Shown: positions 39,201 to 64,000 of the stretch, piece after piece | How positions within the stretch are numbered: position 1 is the stretch's first letter | Layout: each line of letters begins with the position of its first letter | Assembly (NCBI GenBank): GCA_038243585.1 | Contig: JBBSQY010000001.1 | Location: 120,369 to 184,368, forward strand | DNA from: Candidatus Sumerlaeales bacterium | GTDB lineage: Bacteria > Sumerlaeota > Sumerlaeia > Sumerlaeales > Sumerlaeaceae | Direction: 5' to 3' | Length of the DNA stretch: 64,000 nt | Made by a program: the position numbers and the translations under genes | The notes under the pieces: model-generated | Seen by the model: only the letters and a program-made list of their open reading frames with translations | The model's database searches: none | Told to the model about the DNA's origin: nothing

Positions 39201-40104
39201 GACCACCTCGGGCCTGTCACTTGTCTCTACTAAACACGGGGATCACTTCATGGTTCAATCCGCTTCTGACATCTACTCGCCCGATGGCATTTGGCACATT
39301 AAAATTGACCCGGAAAATTCTAAAGCAACTATTCAGTCAAGGAATGGAGACCGCGCTGTCCACATTCTGTCCAACAAGAAAGTCGTCGACGTTATCTTTT
39401 CTCCCGACGGAAAACAGGCTGCCGGGCTATTCGATAAAGAAGGGGTCGCGGTCTACAATACAAGCACCTGGGAGCGCCTATATCAATTGCCGACAAGCGT
39501 TAACCACCCTGTTTATGTAAAATACTCACCCGACTCAAAGATGCTGATCGTTTGCTACTACAATGGCCTTGTCTCCGCTTACGACGTTACCGGCACACAC
39601 TTGCGAGATCTTTTGCCAGCAGATAACGGATCCCCAATGACCCTTGATTTTTCAAAAGACGGTCGACTCCTTGCAGCAGGGCTTAATGTTGACCGCGCTA
39701 TCGTCATTGATCTGGAAACGGGAGATCATATCAGCACTATGACGGGCCATGTTCGATATATATACGGAGTAGAATTTACTTCGGACGACGAGCGCCTGAT
39801 AACTCTCTCCCGAGATGGGACCGTTAAGATGTGGGATGTGAAGTCTGGTCGGGAACTAGTGACTCTCTTCAAACTGCAGGACGGGGAACTGCCCCTTGGG
39901 ATGGTTATTGGATCTAATAGCAGACAATTCAGCATCGCAACTTCGGAACGACGAGTGGTAAGCACAGAAGTTTTCCCATGGAATCTGGCAGTTTACCCTG
40001 ACCCAATTGGTAACTATACCCTTGCGGAACGAGTGGAATTATGGAACAGGCGGGTACGGCTGAATCCAAATCTCCGCATGAAGGACACCAAGGCGAATCA
40101 GTAA
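36283..40104 (+). CDS. Class III nucleotide cyclase-like + Ser/Thr kinase + TM + WD40 repeat protein
   Basis: FTDLVDS/GDG/VRVGVHMG; LGEGGFG, HKDIKPSN, DFG, YMAPE, SDIYSLG; TM LIYLGAALLFVMLVMIG; FSPDG...VW repeats. Confidence 0.92.
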   Translation: MAEPGIHEIVAQGRLLTLVFTDLVDSVGLKTRLGDSEAGHLIAGHQAGIRKLTAATGGREILIAGDGCFLTFEVPSKAVEFALRLQDFHRQQPALPQVRVGVHMGEVTETVHESSAGRTIEVNGLAVDIASRIQSMARPRQILMSYAVFDNARQRLDASNLQLPVEWLAHGRYILRGADMALEIFEAGLKGLSDFTPPTGGSNAQRDVHGEQESTLGWRPAQGHDLPGRPNWVLIEKLGEGGFGDVWLTEHRKTRDRHVIKFCYSVDRLRTLKREVTLFRLLKETLGDRPDIARVLDYQFEHKPYFLEMEFAGRHNLTSWLEEHGGAEAIPLDTRIELVAQVAVAIAAAHSVGVLHKDIKPSNIMVASGTPTHPRICMIDFGIGAVSDRNLLDIQGITATGLTEVESSGDYASSLAGTRLYMAPELIEGKNATTKSDIYSLGVLLYQMVSAKLNHSLAFGWERDVVDEILRRDIEDCVDGQPEKRLESAEILAHRLRSLPERRAELARTRQDARHVEEIKKRWRLIYLGAALLFVMLVMIGQFALLQYQKARSEENLRKKADAATVQAMEQSAETEVALAKAQQARYFGAIALAESSLRESRLEKAQNILLNEAPRDLLQREWGWLLAQSSPEDVAIKNANINDAVFTPDGSRFVTGNRDTDAKGHVTVYNAGTAQRLSDTLTNNRLVWNLAISPDGLTAATASSDNKISVVDLTSQTIIRELTAHSGIVRDVAFSPDGKLLASVSRDHTLRVWNTKNYSNDHVFTVQTDNFTELDFSRDSRYLVTGSLEGHARIFDTSGTRQICELAGGDGRILSVAFLENGEGVATACTDGAARIYPWPPPADATTLDPTTVIRTRETYPSQVISSIDGKAVYIGNDNGLIMKSDAVTGKLLFSCRVDEPLWKMSLNHDGKKLLTTARWSLRLLDLERLEGSFEITDWPIATSAPLNSMPMKIASVSRLRDHTWDDDKAWRTTSGLSLVSTKHGDHFMVQSASDIYSPDGIWHIKIDPENSKATIQSRNGDRAVHILSNKKVVDVIFSPDGKQAAGLFDKEGVAVYNTSTWERLYQLPTSVNHPVYVKYSPDSKMLIVCYYNGLVSAYDVTGTHLRDLLPADNGSPMTLDFSKDGRLLAAGLNVDRAIVIDLETGDHISTMTGHVRYIYGVEFTSDDERLITLSRDGTVKMWDVKSGRELVTLFKLQDGELPLGMVIGSNSRQFSIATSERRVVSTEVFPWNLAVYPDPIGNYTLAERVELWNRRVRLNPNLRMKDTKANQ

Positions 40105-46820: not shown

Positions 46821-48101
46821 TTAGCGCCCTACGATCGACGTTGTGACTGACGATGTAGCGGTAGTCTCAAGAGATGACGCATTTTCGGGTAGGGATGGCT
46901 CGCCGAGTTGGTCGCCTAAGAGTGTAGCCGTAGTATCAGCGTGATCAACATTCATCGTCGCAGCCGTTGTAGCTTCCGTGGCAGCGACAGTTCCTGAAGT
47001 CACTTTCACCGCTGCGGGTGGTTCACTCTCCATCTCGCTACCGGCTATCGGCTCCGTGTTTGAAGTGGGCACATCTTCTGTTGCCGGCAGAGGAGGCGGC
47101 GTGATCCTAATAGATTCCGGATCAGGAAACAGCGCTTCCGCAGCCTGCTTGCTTATGATAAAGATGTCAGCCTTGTCAGCACTCTTGGCATACCAGCCAC
47201 CAATCGCCCCAGCGCCAGACGCTACCGCTGCGGGTGGAGGATCCAGTTCGTTGCCTACAAACAGAGTTGCCGAAGTCGGGGTACTGGGAGAAGTGGATTT
47301 GTCCTCATAGTATAGAGAGATAGTCTGGCGAGGCGGTTCCAGGCCCAGACCTGCGAGACCCGGCGTCGCCGTGGTTTCAACAAACCGGTCAGCCTGAAGA
47401 CTAGCCAGCATATTTGCCAGACTGTTGATGCGCGCCGCATCAGCCTCACCAGGTGCCGGCTCGGCGAACAGCCATTTCTCGTCATTGGATTTTGTCACCA
47501 CAAAGGTTGCAGAAATTCCGGTTTCCTCGATGCGAGTAGCGTTGCTGCCAGAAAAGTTAAAGATCCTGCGATCCCGCCAGCCGTCTTCGCGATTAAAAGT
47601 TTTTGCCAGGCTGGCTTGGGCGTTTAGTACTTCTTTCGAGTCCGCCTTACGTACATATGTGGAAAAGACGGATTGGCCGTCTCTACCAATCAGCAGGTCA
47701 AGAACTGGGTTGGTGCTTCCGTTCTGATAAACCTGCACCTTTGTCGAACTGGTTTCGGTAACTTGGTACTCGGCAAAGCTGTTCGGGTTTGAGCTGACCA
47801 CTGTCGCCGTAATAGGTTTTTCGAGCGCCCCCATAATTGCGATAATTGCCCCGGCATCCGCCTCATGCTGACGCTCCACGTTAGTGTACCATTTATCGCC
47901 CGACTTTGTCAGGGTCACAGCGTCCTGATCCGGAGCATTAATCAGGATACGCTCGACCGTGCCGCTTGTGATGGCCGGAAGCGTCTGGACCGGAATGGCA
48001 GCGGAAACAAGCGATTGTTCCTCTTTTTGATTCTGATAATAAATTGCCCCCCCAACCGCCAAAGCGGCCGCAAGCAGCAGGATTGTTCCTTTTGTGTTCA
48101 T
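46821..48101 (-). CDS. DUF4340 domain protein
   Basis: N-terminal TM, WRDRRIF, YVR, GLEPP; usual position after gldG-like gene. Confidence 0.85.
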   Translation of the reverse strand: MNTKGTILLLAAALAVGGAIYYQNQKEEQSLVSAAIPVQTLPAITSGTVERILINAPDQDAVTLTKSGDKWYTNVERQHEADAGAIIAIMGALEKPITATVVSSNPNSFAEYQVTETSSTKVQVYQNGSTNPVLDLLIGRDGQSVFSTYVRKADSKEVLNAQASLAKTFNREDGWRDRRIFNFSGSNATRIEETGISATFVVTKSNDEKWLFAEPAPGEADAARINSLANMLASLQADRFVETTATPGLAGLGLEPPRQTISLYYEDKSTSPSTPTSATLFVGNELDPPPAAVASGAGAIGGWYAKSADKADIFIISKQAAEALFPDPESIRITPPPLPATEDVPTSNTEPIAGSEMESEPPAAVKVTSGTVAATEATTAATMNVDHADTTATLLGDQLGEPSLPENASSLETTATSSVTTSIVGR

Positions 48102-48154
48102 AAGGTTCGTTTCCCGTTAGTTAAAAGTTTAGCGCAAATAGCAGAATTGTTCTG

Positions 48155-49825
48155 CTATGCTGCATTGCCATAGATACGGCGATAGCGAGCCCGACGGCGC
48201 CGATTGTTCATCAATAATCCGAAACCAAAGGCGACAAGCAGCAGCGGTATACCGATAATAATCAATGCCTGTGTCCAGCGCGCCTCCGCCGGAGTAATCT
48301 GTCGCAATTGAGCAGTTCCCATATCGCGTGCGCGAAGCGCCAGCAAATCACCACCACGAGTAAACGCCTCAGCCACGTTCAGCGGAAGCAAAGCGTTCGC
48401 CGGCATCGCCTGAATCGCCTGGTCCACCAGCAACAGCGCCGATCCAACCACAACGACTTCTGCGCTCTCTTTGCTTTTTTTCATGATATCGTCAGCAGCC
48501 ACCGTTTTTGTAGTTCCGTCCTCATTTGTCAGTACGGGCGCCGGCGTCTCCGCATAGCGGCTCGTCAGTGAACCCTTGACCAGCATCGCAAGATCCTGCG
48601 CCTTGGTCTTCTCCTCAGGTGCCGGTGGCTTAAGCTCAGTAGGGTCCAAAGTAAACGGGCCAGCCTGCAGTCGCGAATTCTCCGACGAAGTCAGCAGCGC
48701 TGTAACCGGGGCACTAGTGCCGCGATCGCTCCGGCTTACGCTTGAAGTATACGCGAACATCACCTCAGGAATGTCTTTAGTCAGAGCGCTTTCCTTGGCA
48801 CCCTTAGCCGTAATAAAAACCAGTGGGTCCTTATATCGAATTATGGTGCCAGCACGCGTCATGGCACCCTGTGAACGCCCACCCGTCCAGTCTTCAACCA
48901 GGTCCGCGTTGATCCGCAGGCCATAATACTCGAGAATCGAGTTGATGTTTGGCGGATTAGGAATAACACTATTCATCCCGCCCCGGCTGTTAAGCTGCAC
49001 GCCCGGCGCAGCCACAAAAAGTTTCCCGCCATTCATAACATACTGGTCAATATGAAACAGCGATTCCTCGCTCAGGTCCTGCGGGTCAATAATCATAAGC
49101 ATCTGTAAACTGGCGAGGTCTCCCAGCGCCGTCGCCTGCAATTCAGAAACGCTGAAACCCTCCGCCTCCAGTTGCGACTTAAGACCTGCAAACTGGCTGG
49201 GCTGCCCCATAAGCGGATTGCCCCCCGGCGCTACCAGACCGATAGCCGGGATATTAACAACGGCCGCCTTATTAATCACACGGCTTAACTGGTACTCCAG
49301 CGACTGACTTGTATCCAGGAAGGAAATCGTTTCACCCTTGCCGCGATACTCTGCCGTCATTCCGAAATAACCCTTGTTAAGCTTATACTCGGACGCCGAC
49401 GACTGCTGCATCAGCGATGCTTCCATACCCGCCTCCTGCGCCGCCTTTTCTGACGGGGAGTCCGACCCAGGGCTCACGTCGCGAAAAGTAAACTGGACCC
49501 GGCCATTCGAAACGTTACGATACTCCGTCAACAATTCGCGAAGTTCGTCGCGGCGTTGAGTCCACTCCGGAGGAATATTATCTTCCGTAGCATAAACCGT
49601 AACAGTCACACGGTCTTCCAGCTTCTTAAGCAGAGAACGGCTGCTGTCACTGAGGCTATACATACTGTTGCGTGTCAAATCAAGCCGCATATTGCTCTTC
49701 CCCGCCAGCCAGTAGACTCCCACCAGCACCACGACGATTAGAACGCTTCCGACAACAACATTAAACCCTGATTTATAAACCCGGGACTTACGTTCGCTCT
49801 GATCATAATCTTTTGGTTGCGACAT
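48155..49825 (-). CDS. GldG-family ABC accessory protein
   Basis: RLDLT....YSLS, LEYQL, IDQYVMNGGKL, C-terminal TM + RRRR. Confidence 0.9.
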   Translation of the reverse strand: MSQPKDYDQSERKSRVYKSGFNVVVGSVLIVVVLVGVYWLAGKSNMRLDLTRNSMYSLSDSSRSLLKKLEDRVTVTVYATEDNIPPEWTQRRDELRELLTEYRNVSNGRVQFTFRDVSPGSDSPSEKAAQEAGMEASLMQQSSASEYKLNKGYFGMTAEYRGKGETISFLDTSQSLEYQLSRVINKAAVVNIPAIGLVAPGGNPLMGQPSQFAGLKSQLEAEGFSVSELQATALGDLASLQMLMIIDPQDLSEESLFHIDQYVMNGGKLFVAAPGVQLNSRGGMNSVIPNPPNINSILEYYGLRINADLVEDWTGGRSQGAMTRAGTIIRYKDPLVFITAKGAKESALTKDIPEVMFAYTSSVSRSDRGTSAPVTALLTSSENSRLQAGPFTLDPTELKPPAPEEKTKAQDLAMLVKGSLTSRYAETPAPVLTNEDGTTKTVAADDIMKKSKESAEVVVVGSALLLVDQAIQAMPANALLPLNVAEAFTRGGDLLALRARDMGTAQLRQITPAEARWTQALIIIGIPLLLVAFGFGLLMNNRRRRARYRRIYGNAA

Positions 49826-49834
49826 TGATAACCC

Positions 49835-50575
49835 CTATTTCCACTTCCGACTCTCGATAGTCCGCACGTTGAGAAAAAGAAAAAAGATAATTACAGCCAC
49901 ATAATACACGACATCCTTCAGGTCAAGCACACCCCGGTACATACTCGCAAAGTGGGTCATCAGGCCGAATTGCGCAACGACGTTATAAACTCCCGTCGGC
50001 AAAAGGTTCGCCAGCGTAGGATGGCTGATCAGGATAAGACAGAACGTCACAACACACGTAACGATGAGCGCCACAATCTGATTAACCGTAATGCTGCTCG
50101 CCCAGCAGCCAATCGCTAAAATAGCCGAGCCCATAAGAAGCGCGCCAATATACCCACAAATGATTGGCCCATAATCAACCGGCGTGGCGGGGTCCGCAAA
50201 ATGATGAACCACATAGACCAGCGTCAGTGTCAATACCAGCGCGCACAGCAAAAGAAACACCGTACTAAAAAACTTTCCCAGCACTGCCTCCCAATCCCTT
50301 ACGGGCATCGTCATCAGCAGTTCCTCAGTGCCGCTACGTTTCTCCTCGCTCCAGATGCGCATCGCAATCGCAGGACAAAGAAACAAAAACAACCAGGGAA
50401 TGAACTCAAAAAAGCCATGCAGCGCCGCGAAGCGCGCCTTAAAAAACCCCTGTCCGGCAAAATTAAAAAACAGCGCCGGACCAACAATTAGAAAAACAAT
50501 AAGGAAAATATAAGCCTGAGGCGAGTTGAAATACGTGCCTAGCTCTTTCCTGAAAATCCGATAAATGTTCAGCAT
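49835..50575 (-). CDS. GldF-family ABC permease
   Basis: KEL.TYFNSP.AY, PAIAMRIWSEEKRSGTEELL.T.P, LGKF, RGVLDLKDVVYY. Confidence 0.92.
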   Translation of the reverse strand: MLNIYRIFRKELGTYFNSPQAYIFLIVFLIVGPALFFNFAGQGFFKARFAALHGFFEFIPWLFLFLCPAIAMRIWSEEKRSGTEELLMTMPVRDWEAVLGKFFSTVFLLLCALVLTLTLVYVVHHFADPATPVDYGPIICGYIGALLMGSAILAIGCWASSITVNQIVALIVTCVVTFCLILISHPTLANLLPTGVYNVVAQFGLMTHFASMYRGVLDLKDVVYYVAVIIFFLFLNVRTIESRKWK

Positions 50576-50703
50576 GACAAGCTACTAGCGCTCCCGGTGA
50601 ATTGTTTGTATCGCAGGCGGCGACCTTTTAAAAGGTCGGCTGACACAGCCGCGATCATCATAGCAGGTTGCGTGCTAAAGACGGCAAAAAAAACCATCTG
50701 GAT

Positions 50704-50745
50704 AAAAAACTGCGCCAGCCGACACGTGGAGGTGAAGGCTGGCGC
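50704..50745 (-). terminator. Probable terminator after small lipoprotein
   Basis: GCGCCAGCC...GGCTGGCGC stem followed on minus strand by AGTTTTTT. Confidence 0.55.
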
Positions 50746-50780
50746 TTTAAAACCGGAAGCAAGCTTCCGGAATTAAACTT

Positions 50781-50945
50781 TTACAGGGTCTCGGTGGTTA
50801 CCGTAGAATCTACTTCTACTTCAACAGCTTCGCCATTTGGCGCAACGGTTTCAGTCGTTGATTCTACCGTCTCGCTCTCCTGCTTGTCGCAGGCGCTAAA
50901 AAATAGCGAACCAAAAACGGCCAACAATAGGGCTACTTTTTTCAT
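50781..50945 (-). CDS. Small acidic lipoprotein (54 aa; below ORF-track cutoff)
   Basis: AGGAGG RBS; MKKVALLLAVFGSLFFSAC-DKQESETVESTTETVAPNGEAVEVEVDSTVTTETL. Confidence 0.85.
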   Translation of the reverse strand: MKKVALLLAVFGSLFFSACDKQESETVESTTETVAPNGEAVEVEVDSTVTTETL

Positions 50946-51030
50946 TTGTCTCAACCTCCTCTCGTCTCGTGTATTTAATTTCGTAATGTGCTGGCGCTAC
51001 CGGTCGATAAATGAAAATGCCAGTCTTTTC

Positions 51031-51963
51031 TTAATGCCTCGTCAATTCAGCAAAGACATCCTCAAGAGATGCGACATCTTGACGCAGTTCTGTCATCGTC
51101 CAACCATTATCAACACAGCAGCGAAAAATTTTCTCCGGCAAATTTTGGCCGGATTCCGAATCCAGATGCAGCCGCGTAGAACCATCCTTTAGAGACTCCA
51201 GCTGACGCACCATATCTACTCCGGGGATAGCCGCAAGTTTATGCTCTACGTCCGGCTGAGGCCCCCGAATCACCGTTGTGATACCCGCTACACCCGAGCC
51301 ACGCCGAATAAGCTCATCCGGAGTGCCAGAGGCAACAACAAGCCCGTCACTTATAATAATAGCGCGATCACACGTAGCCGCAACCTCAGGCAAAATATGC
51401 GTCGACAAAATAACAGTCTTTTCTCGTCCAATTTCCCGGATCAGATCACGAATCTCAACAATCTGGTTAGGGTCCAGTCCACTTGTCGGTTCATCCAGCA
51501 CAAGAATATCCGGTTCGTGAATCAACGCCTGCGCCAGCCCCACACGCTGCCGATAACCCTTGGACAGCTCGCCAATATTCTTAGCTACAGCGCTCCCCAG
51601 CCCAGTACGATCAATCACAAGCTTGATGCGCGACGCCAGCCGATTCCCCTTAAGTCCATGCATCCCGCCAGCAAACTGCAAAAAATCCACCACCGCCATC
51701 TCGGAATACAAAGGAGCATTCTCCGGCAGATACCCGATATGCCTGCGCACCTCCAGGCTCTTCTCGTAAGTATCAAACCCCGCCACCATAGCCTGCCCCG
51801 AATCCGCCGGCATATAACACGTCAAAATCTTCATCGTAGTAGACTTCCCCGCGCCGTTAGGCCCCAGGAAACCAACAATTTCACCCTTATTAATAGTAAA
51901 AGAAACACCCTTAAGCGCACGGGTCGTTCCATAACTTTTCGTAAGATTATCCACAGTAATCAT
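51031..51963 (-). CDS. GldA-family ABC ATPase
   Basis: GPNGAGKST, GYLPENAPLY, LSKGYRQRVGLAQAL, LDEPTSGLDPNQ, STHIL. Confidence 0.94.
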   Translation of the reverse strand: MITVDNLTKSYGTTRALKGVSFTINKGEIVGFLGPNGAGKSTTMKILTCYMPADSGQAMVAGFDTYEKSLEVRRHIGYLPENAPLYSEMAVVDFLQFAGGMHGLKGNRLASRIKLVIDRTGLGSAVAKNIGELSKGYRQRVGLAQALIHEPDILVLDEPTSGLDPNQIVEIRDLIREIGREKTVILSTHILPEVAATCDRAIIISDGLVVASGTPDELIRRGSGVAGITTVIRGPQPDVEHKLAAIPGVDMVRQLESLKDGSTRLHLDSESGQNLPEKIFRCCVDNGWTMTELRQDVASLEDVFAELTRH

Positions 51964-53433: not shown

Positions 53434-54546
53434 TTAATAGATTGTCCAGTCAGAAACGCCACTCGTATTATTAACGCTCAGCCGGAAGATGCTACCTGTG
53501 CTGGTCGGCGATGTTATAGTATTAGACGAATAACCATACACGTTTCCCGTGGCCGGATCCATTGCAATATCTATGGTTGCATTCGCGGCGTCCATATTGA
53601 TTGTGCCTGCATCATAAAGGGCATCGCCATCAGCATCAAGACCTGCGGCTGGAACAATATTATTCCAGGTCAGGCCGTCCACAGCGATGTTGGCTATGGC
53701 AAAACCATCCTGCGTCCCACCAGCTTCAGCCAGGGCGCCAAGAGAGTTGTCGGCATTGACAGCAAGGCCCTGCTTGGCGAAGACGGCATATTGTGACACA
53801 TCGGTGCCGGCAGTTGCGCTAAAGGTGGGAGTATAAGCGACAGTATACTTTTTGATCGCGAGACCTGAGTTGGTTGATGCAACAACATTGAGTCCGTCAT
53901 GAGAACCGATAGAATGGACTTCACCTGCACCTGCGAATCCGGAAGCAAACTGACCCAGATAACTAAACACATTCGGCGTTGCTAGCGAGTTTCCGAAGAC
54001 AATGATTTTGGTGGCTCTGCCAACGAATATCTTGGCTGTGCCTAGTCCGACGTTACCGGTAACTTCAAGAGCACGGGAAGTGCCCGTTATTGCCGGAACA
54101 ATTGTGGCATAATCCGCAGCAGCAATAACAGTCAGAAGTGTTCCAGCCGTGGTATAGCGCTGCACTGTGCCACCAAATCCATTAACGAAGATGTAGCCAT
54201 CCTCACTGGTGGCCAGGCGGTAATGGTCAAGCGGGGCATCGCCGGTTGACTGGGTAGGAAAACTTCCAAAATTCATTCCGTCGCTTGCGCGAAGCATCTG
54301 GATGTCAACCGTAGCCCCCGTGCCTGTGATCGCTGCAACTAGATCAATATTAAGACTATTTTGGGCAGCGCCACCGGCGATAAAATCGATACCGCGACCG
54401 ACGTTGGTCGCAGAATCGATCCAGCCGTTGCCACTGGCAGCACCACTACCGCCGGTGACGAGCCAGTCTTGCTCCACAGTCTGACCCTGTAAAGCGGAAG
54501 GCATCAGCATTGCTGCCGCCAGTAATGATAAATAAATTCGTTTCAT
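53434..54546 (-). CDS. Secreted beta-rich surface protein with C-terminal VSDWTIY tag
   Basis: Signal peptide MKRIYLSLLAAAMLMPSALQG; Gly/Ala/Thr-rich, no Cys; ends TSGVSDWTIY. Confidence 0.85.
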   Translation of the reverse strand: MKRIYLSLLAAAMLMPSALQGQTVEQDWLVTGGSGAASGNGWIDSATNVGRGIDFIAGGAAQNSLNIDLVAAITGTGATVDIQMLRASDGMNFGSFPTQSTGDAPLDHYRLATSEDGYIFVNGFGGTVQRYTTAGTLLTVIAAADYATIVPAITGTSRALEVTGNVGLGTAKIFVGRATKIIVFGNSLATPNVFSYLGQFASGFAGAGEVHSIGSHDGLNVVASTNSGLAIKKYTVAYTPTFSATAGTDVSQYAVFAKQGLAVNADNSLGALAEAGGTQDGFAIANIAVDGLTWNNIVPAAGLDADGDALYDAGTINMDAANATIDIAMDPATGNVYGYSSNTITSPTSTGSIFRLSVNNTSGVSDWTIY

Positions 54547-54737
54547 AAGCAATTATCCCCTAAGGCTAATTTTGATCTTCATTGGAAAACAGGCAGCATA
54601 ACAAGTTGCAACCATATAATCCGAATAACGGAAATGGAAGTGAACCCGGGTATTATTCTAACTAGAAGGCAGAAAGTTAGCGCTCACGTCCAGGATTTTA
54701 CGTCCCGCTTACAGAACGATATACGAATGCGCGAGCC

Positions 54738-55868
54738 TTACACCGCCTGCGGGCGTTCTGCCAGATAAGCCCTATACTGGTTCAGCAGGTCTTCAATCTC
54801 CGAGTAAGTTTCTACCGTCATCAGTTTCGTGCGGAGGGTTTTGCAGCCCGGGATTCCCTTAATATATTGCTGGCTGTGCTTGCGCATTTCTTTCACGGCC
54901 CGGTTCTCGCCCTTGATGTCGATAGTCAGTTTCGTATGCGTCAGGATCAGGTCCAGGCGTTCGTCGATGCCGACTTCTTTCATGTAATAGGGCACCTTGA
55001 TCGGCACGTGCTCACCGTTGTCTTCCACCAAAACCAGCTCGTCACCGGGCACTTCGCTTTCGTGACCGACCCTGCCGGTAAACAAATCATTAACTGCCGC
55101 CTGGCACGCGCGGAGCAGCCAGGGGTTTCCGATGATGCCGCGGCCCAGCATGACGGCGTCGCAGCCAGTCTCGCGAAACATACGCACGGCGTCGGCGGGC
55201 GACATCACGTCGCCGTTTCCGATCACGGGAATGGCAAGAGCTTCCTTCATGGCTGTGATAAGGGTCCAGTCGGCCTTGCCTTTATAGCCCTGTTCACGGG
55301 TACGCGCGTGCAGGGCAACGGCCTGAGCGCCTTCGTCCTGGCACAGCTTTCCGAGGTCAATGGCGGAAATTTCTTTGCCGTTCCAACCGGCCCGCATCTT
55401 TACCGTAAACGGAATGCTGACAGCCCGGCTGACGGCTCGCACAATCTCCGCCACAAGCTTCGTATCCCGCATGAGTGCGCTGCCGCAATCGTTGCCCGTC
55501 ACGTTTCGCGCAGGACAACCCATATTGAGATCGACAATAGTCGCGCCCGCGGCTTCGACCATCTGGGCGGCCCGGGCGAGAGATGTTGGATTGCTGCCCA
55601 GCAACTGCACGGTAACCGGTTGCTCGCTGCGGTCAAGATCCAGCAGTCGCCAGGTGTTCGCGTCATCACGGATAAGCCCCTCGGCTGAGACCATCTGCGT
55701 AGTCACCAGATCGGCTCCCATCGTGCGCGTCAGCCCGCGATATGCCCGGTCGCTGATATTGCACATAGGAGCCGGTATAACGCGGCATTTCAGGTTTACG
55801 TTGCCGATGCTGAAGCCCGGCGTGCGCCCAAGAAGGCTTGTGTTTGTCGGTGTTATTGTTTCAGTCAT
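54738..55868 (-). CDS. dusB: tRNA-dihydrouridine synthase B
   Basis: APM, VQLLG, DLNMGCP, TVKMRAGW, LHARTR, VIGNGD, GRG..GNPW, EMRKH. Confidence 0.93.
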   Translation of the reverse strand: MTETITPTNTSLLGRTPGFSIGNVNLKCRVIPAPMCNISDRAYRGLTRTMGADLVTTQMVSAEGLIRDDANTWRLLDLDRSEQPVTVQLLGSNPTSLARAAQMVEAAGATIVDLNMGCPARNVTGNDCGSALMRDTKLVAEIVRAVSRAVSIPFTVKMRAGWNGKEISAIDLGKLCQDEGAQAVALHARTREQGYKGKADWTLITAMKEALAIPVIGNGDVMSPADAVRMFRETGCDAVMLGRGIIGNPWLLRACQAAVNDLFTGRVGHESEVPGDELVLVEDNGEHVPIKVPYYMKEVGIDERLDLILTHTKLTIDIKGENRAVKEMRKHSQQYIKGIPGCKTLRTKLMTVETYSEIEDLLNQYRAYLAERPQAV

Positions 55869-55963
55869 AATAAAGAATAGGGCAACCGCAGAAGAAACAT
55901 TCCGACAGGAGACCTACCCTATGAACGGCAGCAGGTTACCAGCCCGAAACGCTTTAAAGGCAG

Positions 55964-56737
55964 TTACGTGATACCTGCGAAAAGTTCCTTTTCAATTTCC
56001 GCGTAATAAGCCTTCACCTGCTTCTCAAACGCAGGAGTTCCAGCGACAACTTTAAAGTAACTGGCCGCTTCTGTGTATTTATCTTCCTTCATCGCAATCT
56101 CACCCATGGTAAAATTGGCGCGCATATCGAGCTTGTTAAACTTCAGTGCTGCCTGCAAACTTGTTTTGGCCCCCGCCAGATCTCCCATGTTATACTGAAC
56201 CATGCCAATCATCGTATTAAAATCAACCGGAGGCCGGGGATTTCCCTGCTCGTCAGGTGGGAGATTTGCCCGATTTGCCTGCGCCTTCTGGAAATACTCC
56301 AAGGCCTTGTCATACTTTTTCATATGAAAGTGGGAGTAACCCAGTTCCGAGAGGTACGTGGGGCTTAAAGAAACTTCAGTAATGCCCGCCTCTTCGCCGC
56401 TCTTAACAAGGCTTTCCAAGTGTCTAACCGCCGCCGGCCAGTCACCCTGCTTCTGTGCTTTCAAGCTGCGAAAACGCGTCATGTCGGTCACCCAGTTGTC
56501 CTTCAACAGAAACAGGGTCAGGGCCATAACGACGGCAAAAATGCCGATAAGCAGCCAGGCCGGTATAAGATCCTCTTTCTCCACCGTGTTTACAGGCGCC
56601 GAGGAATCGCTGTCGCCAAGGGGCCTATTCGGAGCAAGAGTGCCGGTTTTTCTGCGAAATGGCGAAGAGCTCTCGCGGTCGCCCGAGGGCGTCTGTGGGG
56701 CCTTGCCCTTGGCTGGTACATCATTGTTGAGGGACAT
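55964..56737 (-). CDS. Membrane-anchored TPR protein
   Basis: Single TM then TPR-like ELGY....KKYDKALEYFQKA. Confidence 0.8.
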   Translation of the reverse strand: MSLNNDVPAKGKAPQTPSGDRESSSPFRRKTGTLAPNRPLGDSDSSAPVNTVEKEDLIPAWLLIGIFAVVMALTLFLLKDNWVTDMTRFRSLKAQKQGDWPAAVRHLESLVKSGEEAGITEVSLSPTYLSELGYSHFHMKKYDKALEYFQKAQANRANLPPDEQGNPRPPVDFNTMIGMVQYNMGDLAGAKTSLQAALKFNKLDMRANFTMGEIAMKEDKYTEAASYFKVVAGTPAFEKQVKAYYAEIEKELFAGIT

Positions 56738-56889
56738 ATTATTTTTCGTCCTTGCTGGGTGCGGTCATGGTCAGCTCCTGCAAATTGCCTTATGGCCGAT
56801 GCGGCGCAAGGCAAGAAGTATAAACTGGAGGGCGCTTTTAATCAGCAAAAGCGGTTGCCAAGGCCGGTTGCCGTGCATGACTTGGTAAA

Positions 56890-57594
56890 ATGAAGATTCT
56901 TGCCACGCTTCCCACTTATAATGAATCCGGAAATATTTGTCCGCTGATAGAAGAGCTGCTCGCCCTCGACCCAATGCTTGAGGTGCTGGTCGTGGATGAC
57001 GATTCGCCGGATGGCACCTGGCGTCTGGTACAGGAAAAATCCACGAAAGAAAAGCGAATTCACCTTATCCATCGCACCGGAGAACGTGGTCGCGGTACCG
57101 CCGGACTAGCCGCTTTCCGATTCGCCCGAGACAACGGCTACGACGCCGCAGTGGAAATGGACGCAGATTTCAGCCACCACCCTCGGTTTATTCCGTCGCT
57201 GCTCGATCCCCTTCGCAAGGGCGATGCGGATATCGTCATCGGCAGCCGATTGGTAGAAGGCGGCGGCGAAACGGGTCGTCATCCGCTAAGACGCTATATC
57301 ACCCTCGCCGCGAACGGCTATATCCGGATGCTGCTGAAATTACCGATACGCGATTGCACCACTGGCTTTCGCGCCTTCAACCGCAAGGCCCTCGAGGCCA
57401 TTCCCTGGGAAACGCTGGACGCGCGCGGTCCGGAAATTGTGCAGGAGGTATTAATCCACGCCCGCGCCGCCGGACTCACCATGGTGGAAAGGCCCATTCT
57501 TTTTGAAGAGCGACGGGCTGGAACCAGTACCTTTAACTACGGCATTATGGCCCGAAGCTTTCAATACGTCTGGCGAAAGAGGGACAGGAAATGA
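56890..57594 (+). CDS. Polyprenol-phosphate mannose synthase-like GT2
   Basis: PTYNE, VDDDSPDGT, MDADFSH.P, GSR, DCTTGFR, FEERRAG.S. Confidence 0.92.
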   Translation: MKILATLPTYNESGNICPLIEELLALDPMLEVLVVDDDSPDGTWRLVQEKSTKEKRIHLIHRTGERGRGTAGLAAFRFARDNGYDAAVEMDADFSHHPRFIPSLLDPLRKGDADIVIGSRLVEGGGETGRHPLRRYITLAANGYIRMLLKLPIRDCTTGFRAFNRKALEAIPWETLDARGPEIVQEVLIHARAAGLTMVERPILFEERRAGTSTFNYGIMARSFQYVWRKRDRK

Positions 57595-57652
57595 AACACA
57601 AGTGCAACCACTGGACTTTTTCCCTCTCCCTTACTGATACTGAGTTTTTTTC

Positions 57653-58150
57653 GTGGCGTTAGGGTCCCTGTTTATCCTTGCCCCGACCATCGGGTGGGCA
57701 GCCCCGCTGGTGTGGCCGCTGGTGCTAACCGCCGCCGGGGCGCTTGGCTACAAACAGGTGACGTCCATAGCCGACAACGCCCCGCTACGCGGCGAAGCAA
57801 ACGCCGCTATTAATGCGCAAAAAATCGTGGAGATTCCCCTGGAAGCGCAGGTGATCGACGCTGTTGAGGATGAGGTCAAACGCGACCAGGTGCTCCGTTT
57901 TGTCAAAGGCGACATTGTTGTGGTGTTCAAACGCGACCTTCGCGGAAAATTTTCCGTTCAGGTTTCCGGTCCTGACACTCTCACTCGCCGGGAACTGGAA
58001 TTCGCCGGCCGGGAGTTTCTTGGTGCCGTTGTACAGCAGTTCGCCTATAACAAAATGGCGGAACAAATGGAACGCCGGGGCGCAAACATTATAGGCGAGG
58101 AAATCACTGAAGAGGGCGATATAGTGCTTAAACTTCGCCGCTGGGAATAA
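57653..58150 (+). CDS. DUF1257/Ycf35-like protein with N-terminal hydrophobic helix
   Basis: QQFAYN......RRG.....EE.TEEGDIVLKLRRW C-terminus. Confidence 0.6.
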   Translation: MALGSLFILAPTIGWAAPLVWPLVLTAAGALGYKQVTSIADNAPLRGEANAAINAQKIVEIPLEAQVIDAVEDEVKRDQVLRFVKGDIVVVFKRDLRGKFSVQVSGPDTLTRRELEFAGREFLGAVVQQFAYNKMAEQMERRGANIIGEEITEEGDIVLKLRRWE

Positions 58151-58284
58151 ACCGGCTTATAATCATAGGTTGCTCCCGAAATCCCGGTCCACATCCGACG
58201 GCGCAGATGGTTTTCCAAACAGGACCATAACCGACGGTTGCGTGGCCGGCTCATTATACAGTTATTTTTTACAAGGAACCACCC

Positions 58285-59091
58285 ATGGAAATAGTCATAG
58301 TTCAAGATCGCGCCGCACTGGCCGATTACGCCGCTCAGATCATAGGAAAACAGATACACACCAAGCCCGACAGCGTGCTCGGGCTCGCCACCGGCAGCAC
58401 GCCGGTAGAGACCTACCAGCGCCTGGTGGAGGCCCACAAATCTAAGGGGCTGGATTTTTCCAAAGTACGAACCTTTAACCTGGACGAGTATCTTGGCCTC
58501 CCCCGCGACCACAACCAGAGTTATCACTTTTTCATGCATGACAGGCTTTTTAATCATGTAAACATAGCCCCGGAAAACGTCAACCTGCCCGACGGCATGG
58601 CCATGGATCCCGAAACCGCCTGTGCTGATTACGAAAACAAAATCGCAGATGCCGGAGGCATAGACCTGCAACTTCTAGGCGTAGGCGGCAATGGCCACAT
58701 CGCCTTTAACGAACCCGGCAGTTCCCTTGCCGGGCCAACAACCATAAAAGTCCTCACCCGCCAGACAGTCAGCGATAACGCACGGCTGTTCTTTGACGGA
58801 AACGAAGAGGAAGTCCCGAAATTTGCCATTACCATGGGCGTCGGTTCCATACTGGCTGCGCGCAAAGTCCTGTTGATCGCCACCGGCACCGAAAAGGCCG
58901 CTATAGTACGAGCTTTCGTGGAAGGTCCGCTCACAGCGTCCGTCACCGCCAGCGCGTTGCAAATGCATCCCAACGCCACAATAGTACTGGATGAAGAAGC
59001 TGCTTCAAAACTGGAAAACATCGAATACTACCGATGGGTCCAATCGCAAAAATCAGAATATGAAAAGCTGAAAAATCGCCTGGCCAAATGA
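58285..59091 (+). CDS. nagB: Glucosamine-6-phosphate deaminase
   Basis: VLGLATGSTP, FNLDEY, GGIDLQLLG.G.NGHIAFNEPGSS, TMGVG, ASALQMH. Confidence 0.97.
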   Translation: MEIVIVQDRAALADYAAQIIGKQIHTKPDSVLGLATGSTPVETYQRLVEAHKSKGLDFSKVRTFNLDEYLGLPRDHNQSYHFFMHDRLFNHVNIAPENVNLPDGMAMDPETACADYENKIADAGGIDLQLLGVGGNGHIAFNEPGSSLAGPTTIKVLTRQTVSDNARLFFDGNEEEVPKFAITMGVGSILAARKVLLIATGTEKAAIVRAFVEGPLTASVTASALQMHPNATIVLDEEAASKLENIEYYRWVQSQKSEYEKLKNRLAK

Positions 59092-59115
59092 AGTAGCATA
59101 GGCGTCCCGCCTGTG
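59090..59115 (+). repeat. REP family A copy overlapping nagB stop
   Basis: GAAGTAGCATAGGCGTCCCGCCTGTG. Confidence 0.85.
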
Positions 59116-59475
59116 TCATTTAAATTGACATCGGCATCCCATAAAGAACGAAGGCCCGCGCCACGTTAAAATTCTGCACACACCATTCGTTTTTCACTTG
59201 CGTATGAGCTGTCATCTGTTATCACCAGATAAGTGCAAGGTCCTTAACATACATCATAGATCAGCTCGACCTGCTTGGCAACCTTGACACCCGTTCTTTC
59301 GTTTAAAACGCATGTAATAATCTGGAGCATTACTTGCGTAAAGGCATTCCAGTCTCAAGCGCCATTGGCGTCATCTGGGGCCAGTTTTAGCGAATGTATT
59401 GCCGTATTCTCTGCCGGGGAAGGACGCGGCTTCCGCATAGCTGACTATTGCAGTCGATAGAAGGGAAATCGAAGC

Positions 59476-59937
59476 ATGGACATTCACGTCCGAAACAAAA
59501 GCAAACACAATATCATCACGACACATCGCCTGAAGAAGATCACCCAGAACGTGCTGAAGCTGATCCTTGAAGAAAAAGGACGCACAACTGCGGAGGTATC
59601 TATCGTATTCGTGGACGACGGCGAGATGCGGAACCTCAACCGTAACTATCGGGGAATCAACAAGTCAACCGACGTCCTCGCCTTCCCTATGAACGAAGGG
59701 CGCTTTGCCTCTATCAACCCGGATCTCATGGGCGATATAGTTATATCGGTACCCCGCGCCCAACTGCAGTCGGAAACCCATGAGCACTCGCTTGAACGAG
59801 AACTGACGACGCTCCTCATTCATGGCCTGCTCCACCTGTTTGGCTACGATCACGGCACAGACAAAGAAGAGGCCGCCATGAAGGAACTGGAAGTCGAATA
59901 CATGATGCTGGTGGAAGAAGAGCTTAGTATCGCCTGA
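59476..59937 (+). CDS. ybeY: rRNA maturation endoribonuclease YbeY
   Basis: LNRNYRG..KSTDVLAF, GDIVIS, HGLLHLFGYDH. Confidence 0.96.
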   Translation: MDIHVRNKSKHNIITTHRLKKITQNVLKLILEEKGRTTAEVSIVFVDDGEMRNLNRNYRGINKSTDVLAFPMNEGRFASINPDLMGDIVISVPRAQLQSETHEHSLERELTTLLIHGLLHLFGYDHGTDKEEAAMKELEVEYMMLVEEELSIA

Positions 59938-59986
59938 TAAAGCACCGCCTCCAATGCGCCATAATTACTCACCTTTGAAATACACC

Positions 59987-60027
59987 GGCCCGGAAATGTC
60001 ACATTGTGACGGTTCCGGGCTGTTTTC
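59987..60027 (+). terminator. Intrinsic terminator after ybeY
   Basis: GCCCGGAA..GTCAC-att-GTGAC..TTCCGGGC then TGTTTT. Confidence 0.65.
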
Positions 60028-60033
60028 ATTTAT

Positions 60034-60203
60034 AATGCAGGATGGGCATTCCTGCCCGTCTCGCACCAGCCCAGGCAAAAAAGTAGTCGCCGAAAGCTCA
60101 AAAACGTTGTTAAACTACTCGTCCTGATTGATGTCAAAGCAGCATTGCAAACCTGTCAAACAACGTCGTCAACTGAGACGGCCAGGAATGCCCATCCTAC
60201 ATT
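60034..60203. repeat. Inverted REP family B doublet (REPIN/MITE-like, 170 bp)
   Basis: aatgcaggatgggcattcctgcccgtctc at 60034-60062 and its near-perfect reverse complement at 60175-60203. Confidence 0.8.
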
Positions 60204-60245
60204 TCCAACCGCGCCAACGCGACACGACAGCCGTGAAATCCCGGC

Positions 60246-60277
60246 AAAAAAAAGACGGGCCTTTTCAGGCCCGTCTT
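60246..60277 (-). terminator. Intrinsic terminator after ahcY
   Basis: AAGACGGGCCT-tttc-AGGCCCGTCTT with A-run. Confidence 0.85.
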
Positions 60278-60299
60278 AATCTAATAGCTGTTTTATTGC

Positions 60300-61736
60300 T
60301 TAGTAGCGATAATGATCTGTCTTATACGGGCCAGATACCGGCACACCGATATAGTCGGCCTGCTTCTTCGTAAGCTCGGTCAGTTTTACACCAAGCTGGT
60401 CCAGGTGCAGACGTGCAACCTTTTCGTCCAATTCCTTTGGAAGCACATAAACCTGACCGGATTCATACTTGCCGGAGTTACGTTCCGTCCAAAGTTCGAT
60501 CTGGGCCAGGGTCTGGTTCGTGAAGCTGTTGCTCATGACAAAGCTCGGGTGGCCGGTGGCGCACCCGAGATTCACCAGGCGTCCACGCGCCAGGATCGTA
60601 ACGCGCTTGCCGTCGGGCCATTCGATCTGATCAACCTGCGGCTTGATTTCAAACGCCTTCAGCTTAGGATCGTTGAACACGGCGTTGACCTGGATCTCAG
60701 AGTCGAAGTGACCGATGTTGCAGACGATAGCCTGGTGCTTCATTTTCGACATATGATCCGCCGTGATGACGTCCGCATTGCCGGTGCATGTGATGAAGAT
60801 GTCTCCATAGGCGCAGGCGTCATCCATTGTCACGACCGAGTAGCCTTCCATGGCTGCCTGTAGTGCGCAGATGGGGTCGATCTCCGTAACACTGACGATG
60901 GCACCAAGACCGCGGAAGCTCTGCGCGGTTCCCTTGCCCACATCGCCATAACCAGCCACGACGACGCGCTTGCCGGCGATCATAACATCCGTCGCTCGCT
61001 TGACAGCATCGACGCTGCTCTCGCGGCAACCATACAGGTTGTCGAACTTCGATTTCGTGCAGCTATCGTTTACGTTGATGGCCGGGAACAGCAGCTTACC
61101 GTCGCGGGCCATTTCGTACAGGCGATGGACGCCGGTCGTGGTCTCTTCGCTCACGCCCTGCATCTTCTCACCCATTACGCGCCAGCAGTTTGGGTTCTCG
61201 TCCAGGGTCTTGTTCAGCAGCGTGTCAATGATTTCGATTTCTTCATTGTCCGTGCTGATGGCTGGCTTAACGCCCGTCTTTTCATATTCCGCTTCGCGCT
61301 CTGCGCCGCGGATGATCAGCAGGGTAGCGTCGCCGCCGTCGTCAACGATCAGGTCCGGTCCGCCGTCTTCGTGGGCCAGAGCCATCTTGGTGTATTCCCA
61401 ATACTCTTCCAGGGTCTCGCCTTTATAGGCGAACACAGGAATGCCGCTCTCCGCGATGGCCGCCGCGGCGTGATCCTGCGTGCTGTAGATGTTGCACGAT
61501 GCCCAGCGGATATCCGCGCCCAGGTCTGCCAGTGTTTCGATCAGCACAGCAGTCTGAATGGTCATGTGCAATGAACCGGTGATCTTAGCGCCGGCCAGGG
61601 GCTTGCTCGCGGCATATTCTTTACGGACGGACATCAGGCCCGGCATTTCGTGTTCCGCAATGGTGATTTCGTCGCGGCCAAATTTCGCCAATGAAATATC
61701 TTTTACGATATAATCGGCAGTTGTTGTTGCGCTCAT
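60300..61736 (-). CDS. ahcY: Adenosylhomocysteinase
   Basis: [73 protein letters not shown]. Confidence 0.98.
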
Positions 61737-61764
61737 TTGTGTTCCCTTTCTGGGTTTCGTTTCT

Positions 61765-62769
61765 CTATTTTTGGCTGCGGTTTGCAGCCTGTAAACTTGA
61801 TGATACAGCGCGCCGCGCGGTGATGGCATACAGCGGCGGCAACGGCGCCAGTTCGTGGCCCGGCAAATCAGGCTGACCCAGCTCGTGGCGTATCACGTCT
61901 TCAAAACCCGCCCGCGCCAGCCGGTCCGACAGGTCATCAGGATCAACGCCGGCACGTTCATCGGCCATGCGAACCTGAAACGTTGAGTTTTTGTGAGGCA
62001 AAAAGTCCACTATCAGCAGGCGCCCGCCAGGTCGGGTTACCCGACTAAGTTCAGCCACCGCTTCATCCAGTTGCGGTAGATGATGAAGCATGAGCACCAG
62101 TAATGCGAGGTCGACATCTGCGTTAGCAAGCGGCAGTTTTTCAAGCCGACCTTCGTGAAACTCAATGGATGTGCCGTTGCGGCCCGCGCCGACGCGGCGT
62201 TCAGCCAGTTCCAGCATCGGCGCGCTGGAATCTACCGCGATAACCCGGTTGAAGTGCCGCGCCAGGTGCGGCAGCAGATACCCTGTGCCAGCGCCAAGAT
62301 CAGCCACCGTCCACTCGTTAGGGAGCAGCGTCATAAACGCTTCCAGATGAAACGCGGCACCAAAACAGGACTCCCGCAAGGCGTCCCACTGGAGCCCAAT
62401 CTGGTTGAAAAACTGCCCCTGCTCCGTTGCGCGCAACGCCACCACGTGATCCATGCGGTCGCGATCAGCAGCAGACATTTGCTCCGGCGACAGCATCTCC
62501 GCAAGCGTCTGCCGCAGACGCCCCTGCCCATTAGCGACCTCCGCGTTAAGGGTGGCGCGGTAATAAGTAGCCGGCCCAACGGCGCGATCCGTTACAAGAC
62601 CTTCACCCCTCAAAGCTTTCAGATGCCGACTCACATTGGATTGCGGAAGATCCACCACGCGCACAAGCTCGCCCACGCTGAGCTCTTCCGTATGCAACAG
62701 ATGGAGCAATCGCAGCCGAATAGGATCGGCAACGGCGCGAAGTAAGAGGCTGACAGAAAGATGGTCCAT
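61765..62769 (-). CDS. ArsR-HTH + SAM-binding methyltransferase-fold regulator (SahR/SamR-like)
   Basis: [36 protein letters not shown]; directly upstream of ahcY. Confidence 0.9.
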
Positions 62770-62779
62770 TAAAATCCCT

Positions 62780-62799
62780 ATATCCAGATTAAAGGATAA
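62780..62799. promoter_or_regulatory. Candidate SahR/SamR-type operator
   Basis: ATATCCAGATTAAAGGATAA, TATCC-N8-GGATA arms, 10 nt upstream of regulator start. Confidence 0.55.
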
Positions 62800-62899
62800 A
62801 GCAGATTTAAACACTATACTGAGAGCGGGTTATTCAGTTTAGCTATCCGGAAAAGCTGTCATTTCTCCTTATTTACCGCCAGCCCGCCTGGGCGCTTTA

Positions 62900-64000
62900 T
62901 TAATAAAGCGCCCAGTCTTTCACTGCCGTTCCGGGAATCACGTCGGCACTAAAATTATCGAAATGAGCGCCACGCTGGGCGGGGAAACCACCGACATTAC
63001 TTGTGTACCCCATTCCGCATCGACCGGAGATGAAGGTGGTATCTGTAACGGAAGCCTTCAAATCACCGTTTAGGTAATACCGGATGGAATCGCCCTGCGC
63101 TTCAATGCGCATGGTGTACCAGCCACTGGTGGTGATGTTAATTTTTGGCAAAGCGAAATCAACAGGCGAATTCAGGGGCCCTCCCGCGCCGTCTATTATT
63201 TTAGCGCACCGGAGCCATCCGTCATCAGAGTCCCAGGTCATGGCGTAGCAGTTGCCGGCGCCCTCAAAGGTTTGATCCCATCCGGCGAAACCGTCATCAC
63301 GCAAAAAGATGCCGTAGCGTTCCCAGGTTCCGTAGGACGGGTTATAGTTCAGGTAGACGTCGGCTTCAACAAAATAGTCCCGGTGCTCCGGACGCCCCAC
63401 TCTCACGGTCTCATAGGCGCCGTCGCCCGTATTGGTTGCGTCTGTCAGTTTCAGAACCTTGCCATCGCCGCCCGGCGAGGCTGGGCTGGAATTGACAACC
63501 TGACAGCGCACGAACTTCGGCTTTCCAAAATCCAGCAGACCCAGCGAATCAAAATTTTCAGTAATTGGAAACTCATTCGAAGGCAATGCCGCCAGATTGA
63601 CGGCGGCATTGTAAAGTTGTGGGTACACGACCATCTTGCTGTCCGCCTGCACCCAGCCCCAATCAGGACGCGGTCCTGGTAGTACGTGTGTAGGAACCGG
63701 TATCGGAATCCGGTACCAGTTACCGGGCGCCTGTTGATCCGCCACAAAACGACCACCGGCAAAAAGAACGTAACCGATAATGGTTGAAGTTGTGTCGGCA
63801 GTGGCCCGTATGGGATAAATGGTGTTAAGCTGAGCGGTATGCACATAAGGGCCTGTATCCGGCAAGGGCTGAATGACCGTACCCGTCAGCACTTCGTCTA
63901 CATCTAACGCACGCACCCAACCGGACCGATTGCCAGGATTGTTCGGGATAAAGATTCGCCAGTACCCGCGCTTGTCAAAGGATGCGAAATACATCTGATC
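62900..64000 (-). CDS. Extracellular-type protein (5'-truncated): SH3-like repeats, lectin-like beta-sandwich, C-terminal VKDWALY tag
   Basis: GYWRI...GWV and NWYRI...GWV units; WYTMRIEAQG..IRYYLNG...VTD....SG..G; frame open to window edge. Confidence 0.8.
   Translation of the reverse strand, partial: DQMYFASFDKRGYWRIFIPNNPGNRSGWVRALDVDEVLTGTVIQPLPDTGPYVHTAQLNTIYPIRATADTTSTIIGYVLFAGGRFVADQQAPGNWYRIPIPVPTHVLPGPRPDWGWVQADSKMVVYPQLYNAAVNLAALPSNEFPITENFDSLGLLDFGKPKFVRCQVVNSSPASPGGDGKVLKLTDATNTGDGAYETVRVGRPEHRDYFVEADVYLNYNPSYGTWERYGIFLRDDGFAGWDQTFEGAGNCYAMTWDSDDGWLRCAKIIDGAGGPLNSPVDFALPKINITTSGWYTMRIEAQGDSIRYYLNGDLKASVTDTTFISGRCGMGYTSNVGGFPAQRGAHFDNFSADVIPGTAVKDWALY

Follow-up and report, generated by a model that had tools for sequence, protein, structure and literature searches.

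Why should two exported-looking proteins that show no other resemblance end in the same few residues? This question is raised by a 64,000-nucleotide stretch of DNA from Candidatus Sumerlaeales bacterium (assembly GCA_038243585.1, contig JBBSQY010000001.1, positions 120,369 to 184,368), hereafter the window, in which two minus-strand open reading frames (ORFs) end in V-x-D-W-x-x-Y. A preliminary description had taken this tail for an undescribed, lineage-specific export or surface-attachment tag. The analysis presented here supports that interpretation: the tag is genuine, no catalogue entry for it turned up in the libraries and searches we used, and it very probably serves sorting or docking. 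A two-part sorting tag is the best single account of it, if a doubtful one. The features concerned are the following.

53434..54546, minus strand: tagged protein 1, 370 amino acids (aa) from an ATG start, with a predicted Sec signal peptide and no Pfam or NCBIfam family
54484..54546, minus strand: signal peptide predicted for protein 1, by eye and by a heuristic, from a basic N-region, a hydrophobic core and small residues at the cleavage site
53437..53463, minus strand: nine-residue tail S-G-V-S-D-W-T-I-Y of protein 1, then TAA
62900..64000, minus strand: 3' part of tagged protein 2, with a C-terminal DUF1080/PF06439-like domain (weak)
62903..62929, minus strand: nine-residue tail T-A-V-K-D-W-A-L-Y of protein 2, then TAA

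Both ORFs and their ends were as first described, protein 1 closing on NNTSGVSDWTIY and protein 2 on PGTAVKDWALY, each directly before the stop codon. With tails removed, the two proteins gave no BLAST match to each other at E 1e-5, in agreement with their reported dissimilarity. Protein 1 has a predicted signal peptide, as first described. The SH3-like label of protein 2 was not borne out: a family scan of its window part gave nothing for SH3 at E≤0.001, and the PF06439 match there was weak and below cut-off (E 2.9e-5). Protein 2 is truncated by the contig end, the final 141 nucleotides (nt) being identical to the end of contig C49, on which an open ORF forms its 5' part, with a predicted signal peptide and an M23 peptidase domain. 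Protein 1 was beta-propeller-like by Atlas features, which is a lead only. Its tail was kept in 10/10 proteins from a homolog search (itself included; 39-100% identity), and both W and Y were invariant.

To see how far the tail extends, we consider the genome as a whole, which is 89.7% complete and yielded 2,636 genes by our own calling, 2,569 of them closed. V.DW..Y stood at the C-terminus of 29 closed genes, against 0.004 expected from composition, and at no internal position in the 994,963 residues of predicted proteins. An iterated tail profile retrieved 69 genes at a score of at least 13 bits, 77 at 11.5 or more and 86 at 5 or more, the last being a loose cut; the best score among 3,402 off-frame control ORFs was 9.6 bits. 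With two further proteins that have 4-6 trailing residues, the tagged total comes to 88 (3.4% of genes), so that the motif is by no means limited to the two window proteins. The 86 profile-selected proteins fell into 47 sequence clusters, which argues against an integral strand of a shared domain, and no convincing internal tail copies that might reveal a parent domain were found in this genome. When the 88 tails were aligned on W, position -5 was S/A/T in 85, -4 was A/S/G/D, -3 was V/A/I in 86 and -1 was D in 53; W itself was present in 86, +2 was L/I/V/M in 80 and +3 was Y/F in 88, the counts at W and W+3 coming from a profile-selected set whose profile favours these residues. The stop codon followed position +3 directly in 49 tails, and the further residue in the others was mostly E, D, Q or N.

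Predicted exported proteins were enriched among the tagged ones, as had been supposed. A crude signal-peptide test was positive for 55/70 complete tagged genes vs 542/2,091 others, and a looser test of N-terminal hydrophobicity for 67/80 vs 1,022/2,089. Six tagged proteins had no hydrophobic N-terminus; inspected by eye, one was Tat-like (twin-arginine), two had a later start, one followed a signal-bearing ORF by 22 nt and two were unexplained. A lipobox was found in 1/70 tagged proteins and a hydrophobic or transmembrane segment beyond residue 60 in 0/70. The cargo is largely carbohydrate-related, and the families among the scanned tagged proteins included GH43, LTD, M12 peptidase, DUF1501, endonuclease/phosphatase and FAD oxidoreductase. 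Twin-arginine-like starts on two DUF1501-type proteins (G000 C34:32256-33596 and C1:58022-59302) indicate that tagged cargo likely includes Tat substrates, in which case the tail would act on folded cargo. From the Sec and Tat signal peptides together we infer that tagged proteins are probably exported.

The attribution of such tails to Sumerlaeota fits the names of close relatives: one homolog, at 62% identity, bears the name Ca. Sumerlaeaceae, and Sumerlaeota is the name on many related pilin loci. A strict DNA pattern matched in 17/31 relatives (controls 0-1). Two looser patterns, run on 69 genomes of the phylum, matched 598 times against 99 for controls and 1,096 times against 352; in 57 of these genomes the pattern count exceeded control by 5 or more. 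The tag is not confined to one lineage, however, because all 30 genomes searched in a second phylum, possibly Hinthialibacterota, also matched (4-47 each; controls 0-4). Nine genomes of other groups had 0-2 matches, and the pattern was not found in Hydrogenedentota G079. Residues upstream of the core vary by family: G021, G068 and G067, apparently negative by pattern, carry W-x-hydrophobic-Y tails without V-x-D, and one candidate tail was seen in G069. Absence of the tag from family f10, as indicated by V-x-D patterns, was rejected once ORF ends were read; such pattern counts thus under-call diverged tails. To judge from these tails, what is general is a W-x-hydrophobic-Y/F core, after which an acidic residue may follow, and V-x-D varies with family and lineage, so that only the second half of the motif as first written proved general.

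What else can occupy this position was apparent from 120 DUF1501 homologs, compared at the same tail position. Among the top 48, 19 carried the W-tail and 13 a G-hydrophobic-x-hydrophobic tail; 70 of the last 74 carried a YLP-like tail by a loose pattern, and some dockerin-like ends were recognised by eye. YLP-like tails were seen on homologs named Chloroflexota. The tail type G-hydrophobic-x-hydrophobic-R/Y, third in this slot, was found on 13 proteins among homologs P0025-P0056, and G021 (L248, L251) has intermediate tails with F or L replacing W. Because of these intermediates, the sequences suggest one continuum of strand-like tails that takes in both W-tails and G-hydrophobic tails. The tail position thus appears to behave like an anchor slot. 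Four proteins share a second tail, P-V-S-L-S-G-F/W-T-L-E (G000 C8:4290-7676, C84:1-576, C84:639-1160 and C9:50373-51071); a de novo triplet search for further tail classes in this genome gave nothing clear.

No NCBIfam model matched the 22 W-tails submitted. The nearest catalogued analogue is the YLP-box (NF050076 sort_motif_YLP, NF053834 ultrashort_CTERM), which NCBIfam gives only as a putative sorting motif. Like the tag, it has about 10 residues and no transmembrane helix, lies at the C-terminus of exported proteins and occupies the same position in DUF1501 homologs. It differs in reading Y/F-L-P instead of W-x-L-Y, and neither YLP model matched the 22 W-tails at E≤10, although their sensitivity is low, since they reported a YLP tail in 1/18 proteins. 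We found no literature on this tag or on a Sumerlaeota C-terminal motif, subscription journals lying outside our coverage, and none on YLP terms. PMC8092238 mentions type IV pili and uses 'C-terminal' 0 times in its main text. To judge from these searches, the tag is an uncatalogued sequence of a kind, the ultrashort C-terminal motif without a membrane anchor, that the YLP-box also represents. It could be that a receptor such as a surface-layer scaffold, a catcher lipoprotein, a TPR protein or a chaperone, retains or escorts the cargo, as dockerin or the YLP-box might. The exchange of the W-tail with dockerin-like and YLP-box tails speaks for this, and the fixed distance from the C-terminus and the usual acidic or amide extra residue would suit an end-binding pocket. 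Against it, no family besides pilins recurs beside tagged genes in this genome; we consider it somewhat unlikely.

Better known sorting signals did not account for the tail, as the preliminary description had stated. LPXTG, PEP-CTERM, GlyGly-CTERM and MYXO-CTERM (bioRxiv 2023.06.07.544157) are likewise C-terminal signatures on many unrelated exported proteins, but these tripartite signals include a transmembrane helix and a basic cluster, whereas the tag ends at Y/F or one residue further and none of the 70 proteins had a transmembrane segment. Exosortase (PF09721) was found in 0/5 genomes searched, including the closed G021, with a control match in 1/14. Type IX secretion substrates (TIGR04183; PF01364; PMC4560394 and PMC11285876) also combine a signal peptide with a C-terminal signal; theirs is a folded C-terminal domain (CTD) of about 70 residues, the tag a nine-residue signal after the last domain. 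For TIGR04183 (type A CTD) this genome gave 0 matches and a set of 5 genomes a single weak one; none of the control genomes matched.

What was observed is the motif, where it sits at the terminus, how widely it occurs, that it exchanges with anchors, and the gene adjacency and sequence resemblances described below. These could be joined as follows, where docking by a strand, what reads the tag, cleavage and anchoring are what we infer. The W-x-hydrophobic-Y/F end would dock by beta-strand addition on a component of a type IV filament (a pilus or a type II secretion pseudopilus), which would carry the folded tagged cargo out of the periplasm. The upstream half, [S/T]-[G/S/A]-[V/I]-x-D, would be a cutting site for a PorU-like C25 transpeptidase, and cutting would anchor the cargo at the surface in lineages that keep the enzyme. 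That a type IV filament reads the core is a possibility that falls short of probable; that C25 cuts the upstream site in most lineages we hold to be about equally tentative.

The first part of this proposal is consistent with the neighbourhoods of tagged genes. This genome carries three secretin genes, a full type II secretion operon, several minor-pilin sets and 29 GspG-like pilin paralogs. Pilins form the largest recurring neighbour family of tagged genes (12/273); a tagged gene adjoins 11 of the 29 GspG-like genes and is co-oriented with 8 of those 11, an adjacency with a permutation p of 5e-5 vs random genes and 1.5e-4 vs signal-peptide genes. Tagged genes of other genomes directly flank GspG-like pilins in 9/80 loci, and the tag and this pilin family are common to both phyla. 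The pilin motif Y-D-P/A-T-N-G-T is present in 69/69 genomes of the phylum, in 8-97 copies each and with variable heads (e.g. L026:6692-7375). Secretin presence does not discriminate, with 8-12 matches in each of 5 f10 genomes, and a GspG-like pilin model (predicted local distance difference test 76.9) gave only weak pilin-helix structure matches, none at E≤0.001. One tagged protein (G000 C47:7635-8516) combines a Sec-type signal, a GspG-like head without the membrane helix (30-34% identity to C76 pilins) and, by eye, an IPT-like domain. A 1,692-aa secretin with N-terminal TPR repeats lies beside a PilM-PilN fusion (L021:10557-15632, G000 C32), and still longer secretin frames, of 1,980-2,136 aa, were seen in G021, G027 and G068.

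How a filament might read the core is suggested by PilC/PilY1, whose last 10 or so residues, with their conserved W, add the beta-strand that completes PilK; GspK supplies the completing strand itself (PMC13533445 and PMC13711793). The tag shares with these adhesins the last ~10 residues, the conserved W, a hydrophobic W+3, the lack of a membrane anchor and the nearby type IV filament genes. They are one or two dedicated beta-propeller adhesins per cell, however, against about 88 unrelated cargos here, and the PilC tail reads W-R-E-hydrophobic, not W-x-L-Y; binding of the tag to PilK would be a prediction from sequence. The PilY1 beta-propeller PF05567 was found in 0/5 genomes, though no control genome matched, and in none of the scanned tagged proteins. 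PilK/GspK-type proteins here have last strands that read V-L-[Q/D/K/S]-W, the register of the tag. The small PilK family sits in a PilB-PilC-PilC-PilI-PilJ-PilK-pilin operon, and 8/38 of its members had W-x-hydrophobic within the last 16 residues vs 119/2,348 controls. In G007, G011, G012 and G042 the small PilK is one strand short by alignment, with no adhesin ORF after it; the PilI-PilJ-PilK genes of G007 lie at C1:1219536-1220862. A small PilK model had four strands in a minor-pseudopilin fold; against XcpX it gave Z 6.2 (root-mean-square deviation, rmsd, 2.4; 75 aligned), a match from which a left-over last strand cannot be read, and Foldseek returned nothing at E≤0.001. The PilX_N profile gave a single weak match in 5 genomes. 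PilX/GspK-type minor pilins of about 800 aa with an inserted lamin-tail domain were noticed at G000 C15:49439-51850 and in L254, L256 and L257.

The second part concerns C25, where type IX secretion again offers a possible parallel: the upstream half of many tails resembles the PorU site, and C25 proteins with catalytic motifs are present. PorU cuts X/(GSA)(VLI), e.g. T/SIAD and D/GVAD (PMC4560394). The site [STND][GSA][VILA] preceded W in 39/74 core-selected tails vs 193/3,523 internal W (5.5%), and (GSA)(VLI) was present in 33/74. Three C25 proteins of this genome have GHG and Cys motifs (His/Cys dyad); C25 with His-Gly and Cys motifs occurs in 34/35 genomes, with both phyla represented, and not in Hydrogenedentota G079. 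Glycosyltransferases, DUF2298 and O-antigen ligase adjoin C25 genes. Two conserved types, A and B, stand out in the C25 tree, which omits 5/40 loci without the anchor motif, the G021 enzyme among them. Neither type is present in the genus of G021 (closed) and G068, where the one C25 is divergent and shares 22% identity with type A over 156 aa. None of the 12 tails of this genus has the PorU-like site, yet W and Y/F are kept between the two species. The upstream site absent and the core kept is the pattern predicted by a two-part tag.

Several observations weigh against this account. Against a pool of 154 exported-like proteins with similar composition, pilin adjacency was not significant (p 0.08); a pilin lies beside only 11/88 tagged genes; and over the 69 genomes the number of pilins did not correlate with that of tags (rho -0.09). 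Only 4 of the 38 small PilK are clearly strand-less, a few more being unclear and the majority having the strand. In this genome, at its 89.7% completeness, no strand-less acceptor was found: each of the four large PilK-type proteins, and likewise the small PilK at C45:9059-9598, closes with its own candidate strand. Its small PilK keeps a short last segment, without W, which weakens the PilK case. The four-strand head is moreover a complete fold in GspI, the best match of the model (Z 10.8, rmsd 1.9, 79 aligned). On the C25 side, the PorU-like site occurs in only 3/13 tails from pilin loci, the contrast described above rests on one genus and hence one loss, the C25 proteins are themselves untagged, and the four proteins ending in PVSLSG[F/W]TLE could be the C25 substrate instead.

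Either half of the proposal might also suffice alone. The tail could be a generalised PilC/PilY1-type strand, with uncut cargo held at or pushed out by filament tips and the upstream residues a mere linker; this would accommodate the register match to PilK strands, the strand-less PilK of four genomes, the pilin adjacency and the differences in upstream residues between families. It would not account for how strongly S/T-small-V-x-D is conserved both in this genome and in the second phylum, lacks its strand-less PilK in this genome and is, in our view, unlikely. Less likely still, the whole tail could be a minimal substrate of a PorU-like protease, giving type IX attachment without the type IX translocon, and pilin adjacency would reflect shared surface-protein loci. 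The frequent PorU-like site, the wide presence of C25, the joint lack of C25 and tag pattern in G079 and the glycosylation neighbours all agree with this, but G021 and G068 have neither type A nor type B and still have conserved W-x-hydrophobic-Y tails. Least likely of all, the tail could mark proteins for periplasmic quality control or turnover, to be read by a tail-specific or PDZ protease, or could be a micro-motif that binds carbohydrate or membrane: PDZ proteases do read C-terminal aromatic motifs and the cargo is largely carbohydrate-related, but sorting fits better because the tail exchanges with anchors and is absent from lipoproteins and membrane proteins (lipobox 1/70, transmembrane 0/70).

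Two other loci of the window were noticed. A GldA/GldF/GldG-like ABC transporter cluster (46821-51963, minus strand; GldG model match at E 1e-49, below cut-off) lies one gene downstream of tagged protein 1; genes of this kind are familiar mainly from gliding Bacteroidota. At 36283-40104 (plus strand), a 1,273-aa fusion joins a nucleotide-cyclase-like domain, a Ser/Thr kinase and a beta-propeller.

Taken in full, a two-part tag would imply a hybrid route in two uncultured phyla: a nine-residue tail would replace the type IX CTD, its W strand would plug any folded cargo into type IV filament tips in the manner of PilC/PilY1, and cutting just upstream by a PorU-like transpeptidase would anchor the cargo to surface glycan. 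This picture is speculative and, as a whole, unlikely; if it is true, type II-like secretion would have its first signal that is both linear and portable. We know of no short linear signal by which type II or type IV filament machines choose folded cargo, a long-open question. With a nine-residue tag on 3% of the proteome, portable across unrelated domains and Sec and Tat cargo, cargo selection would become testable with peptides and a few small pilins. The tag may also serve as a simple predictor of the surface proteome in two uncultured phyla, and it links two other orphan tails that swap with the W-tail, the YLP-box and G-hydrophobic-x-hydrophobic.

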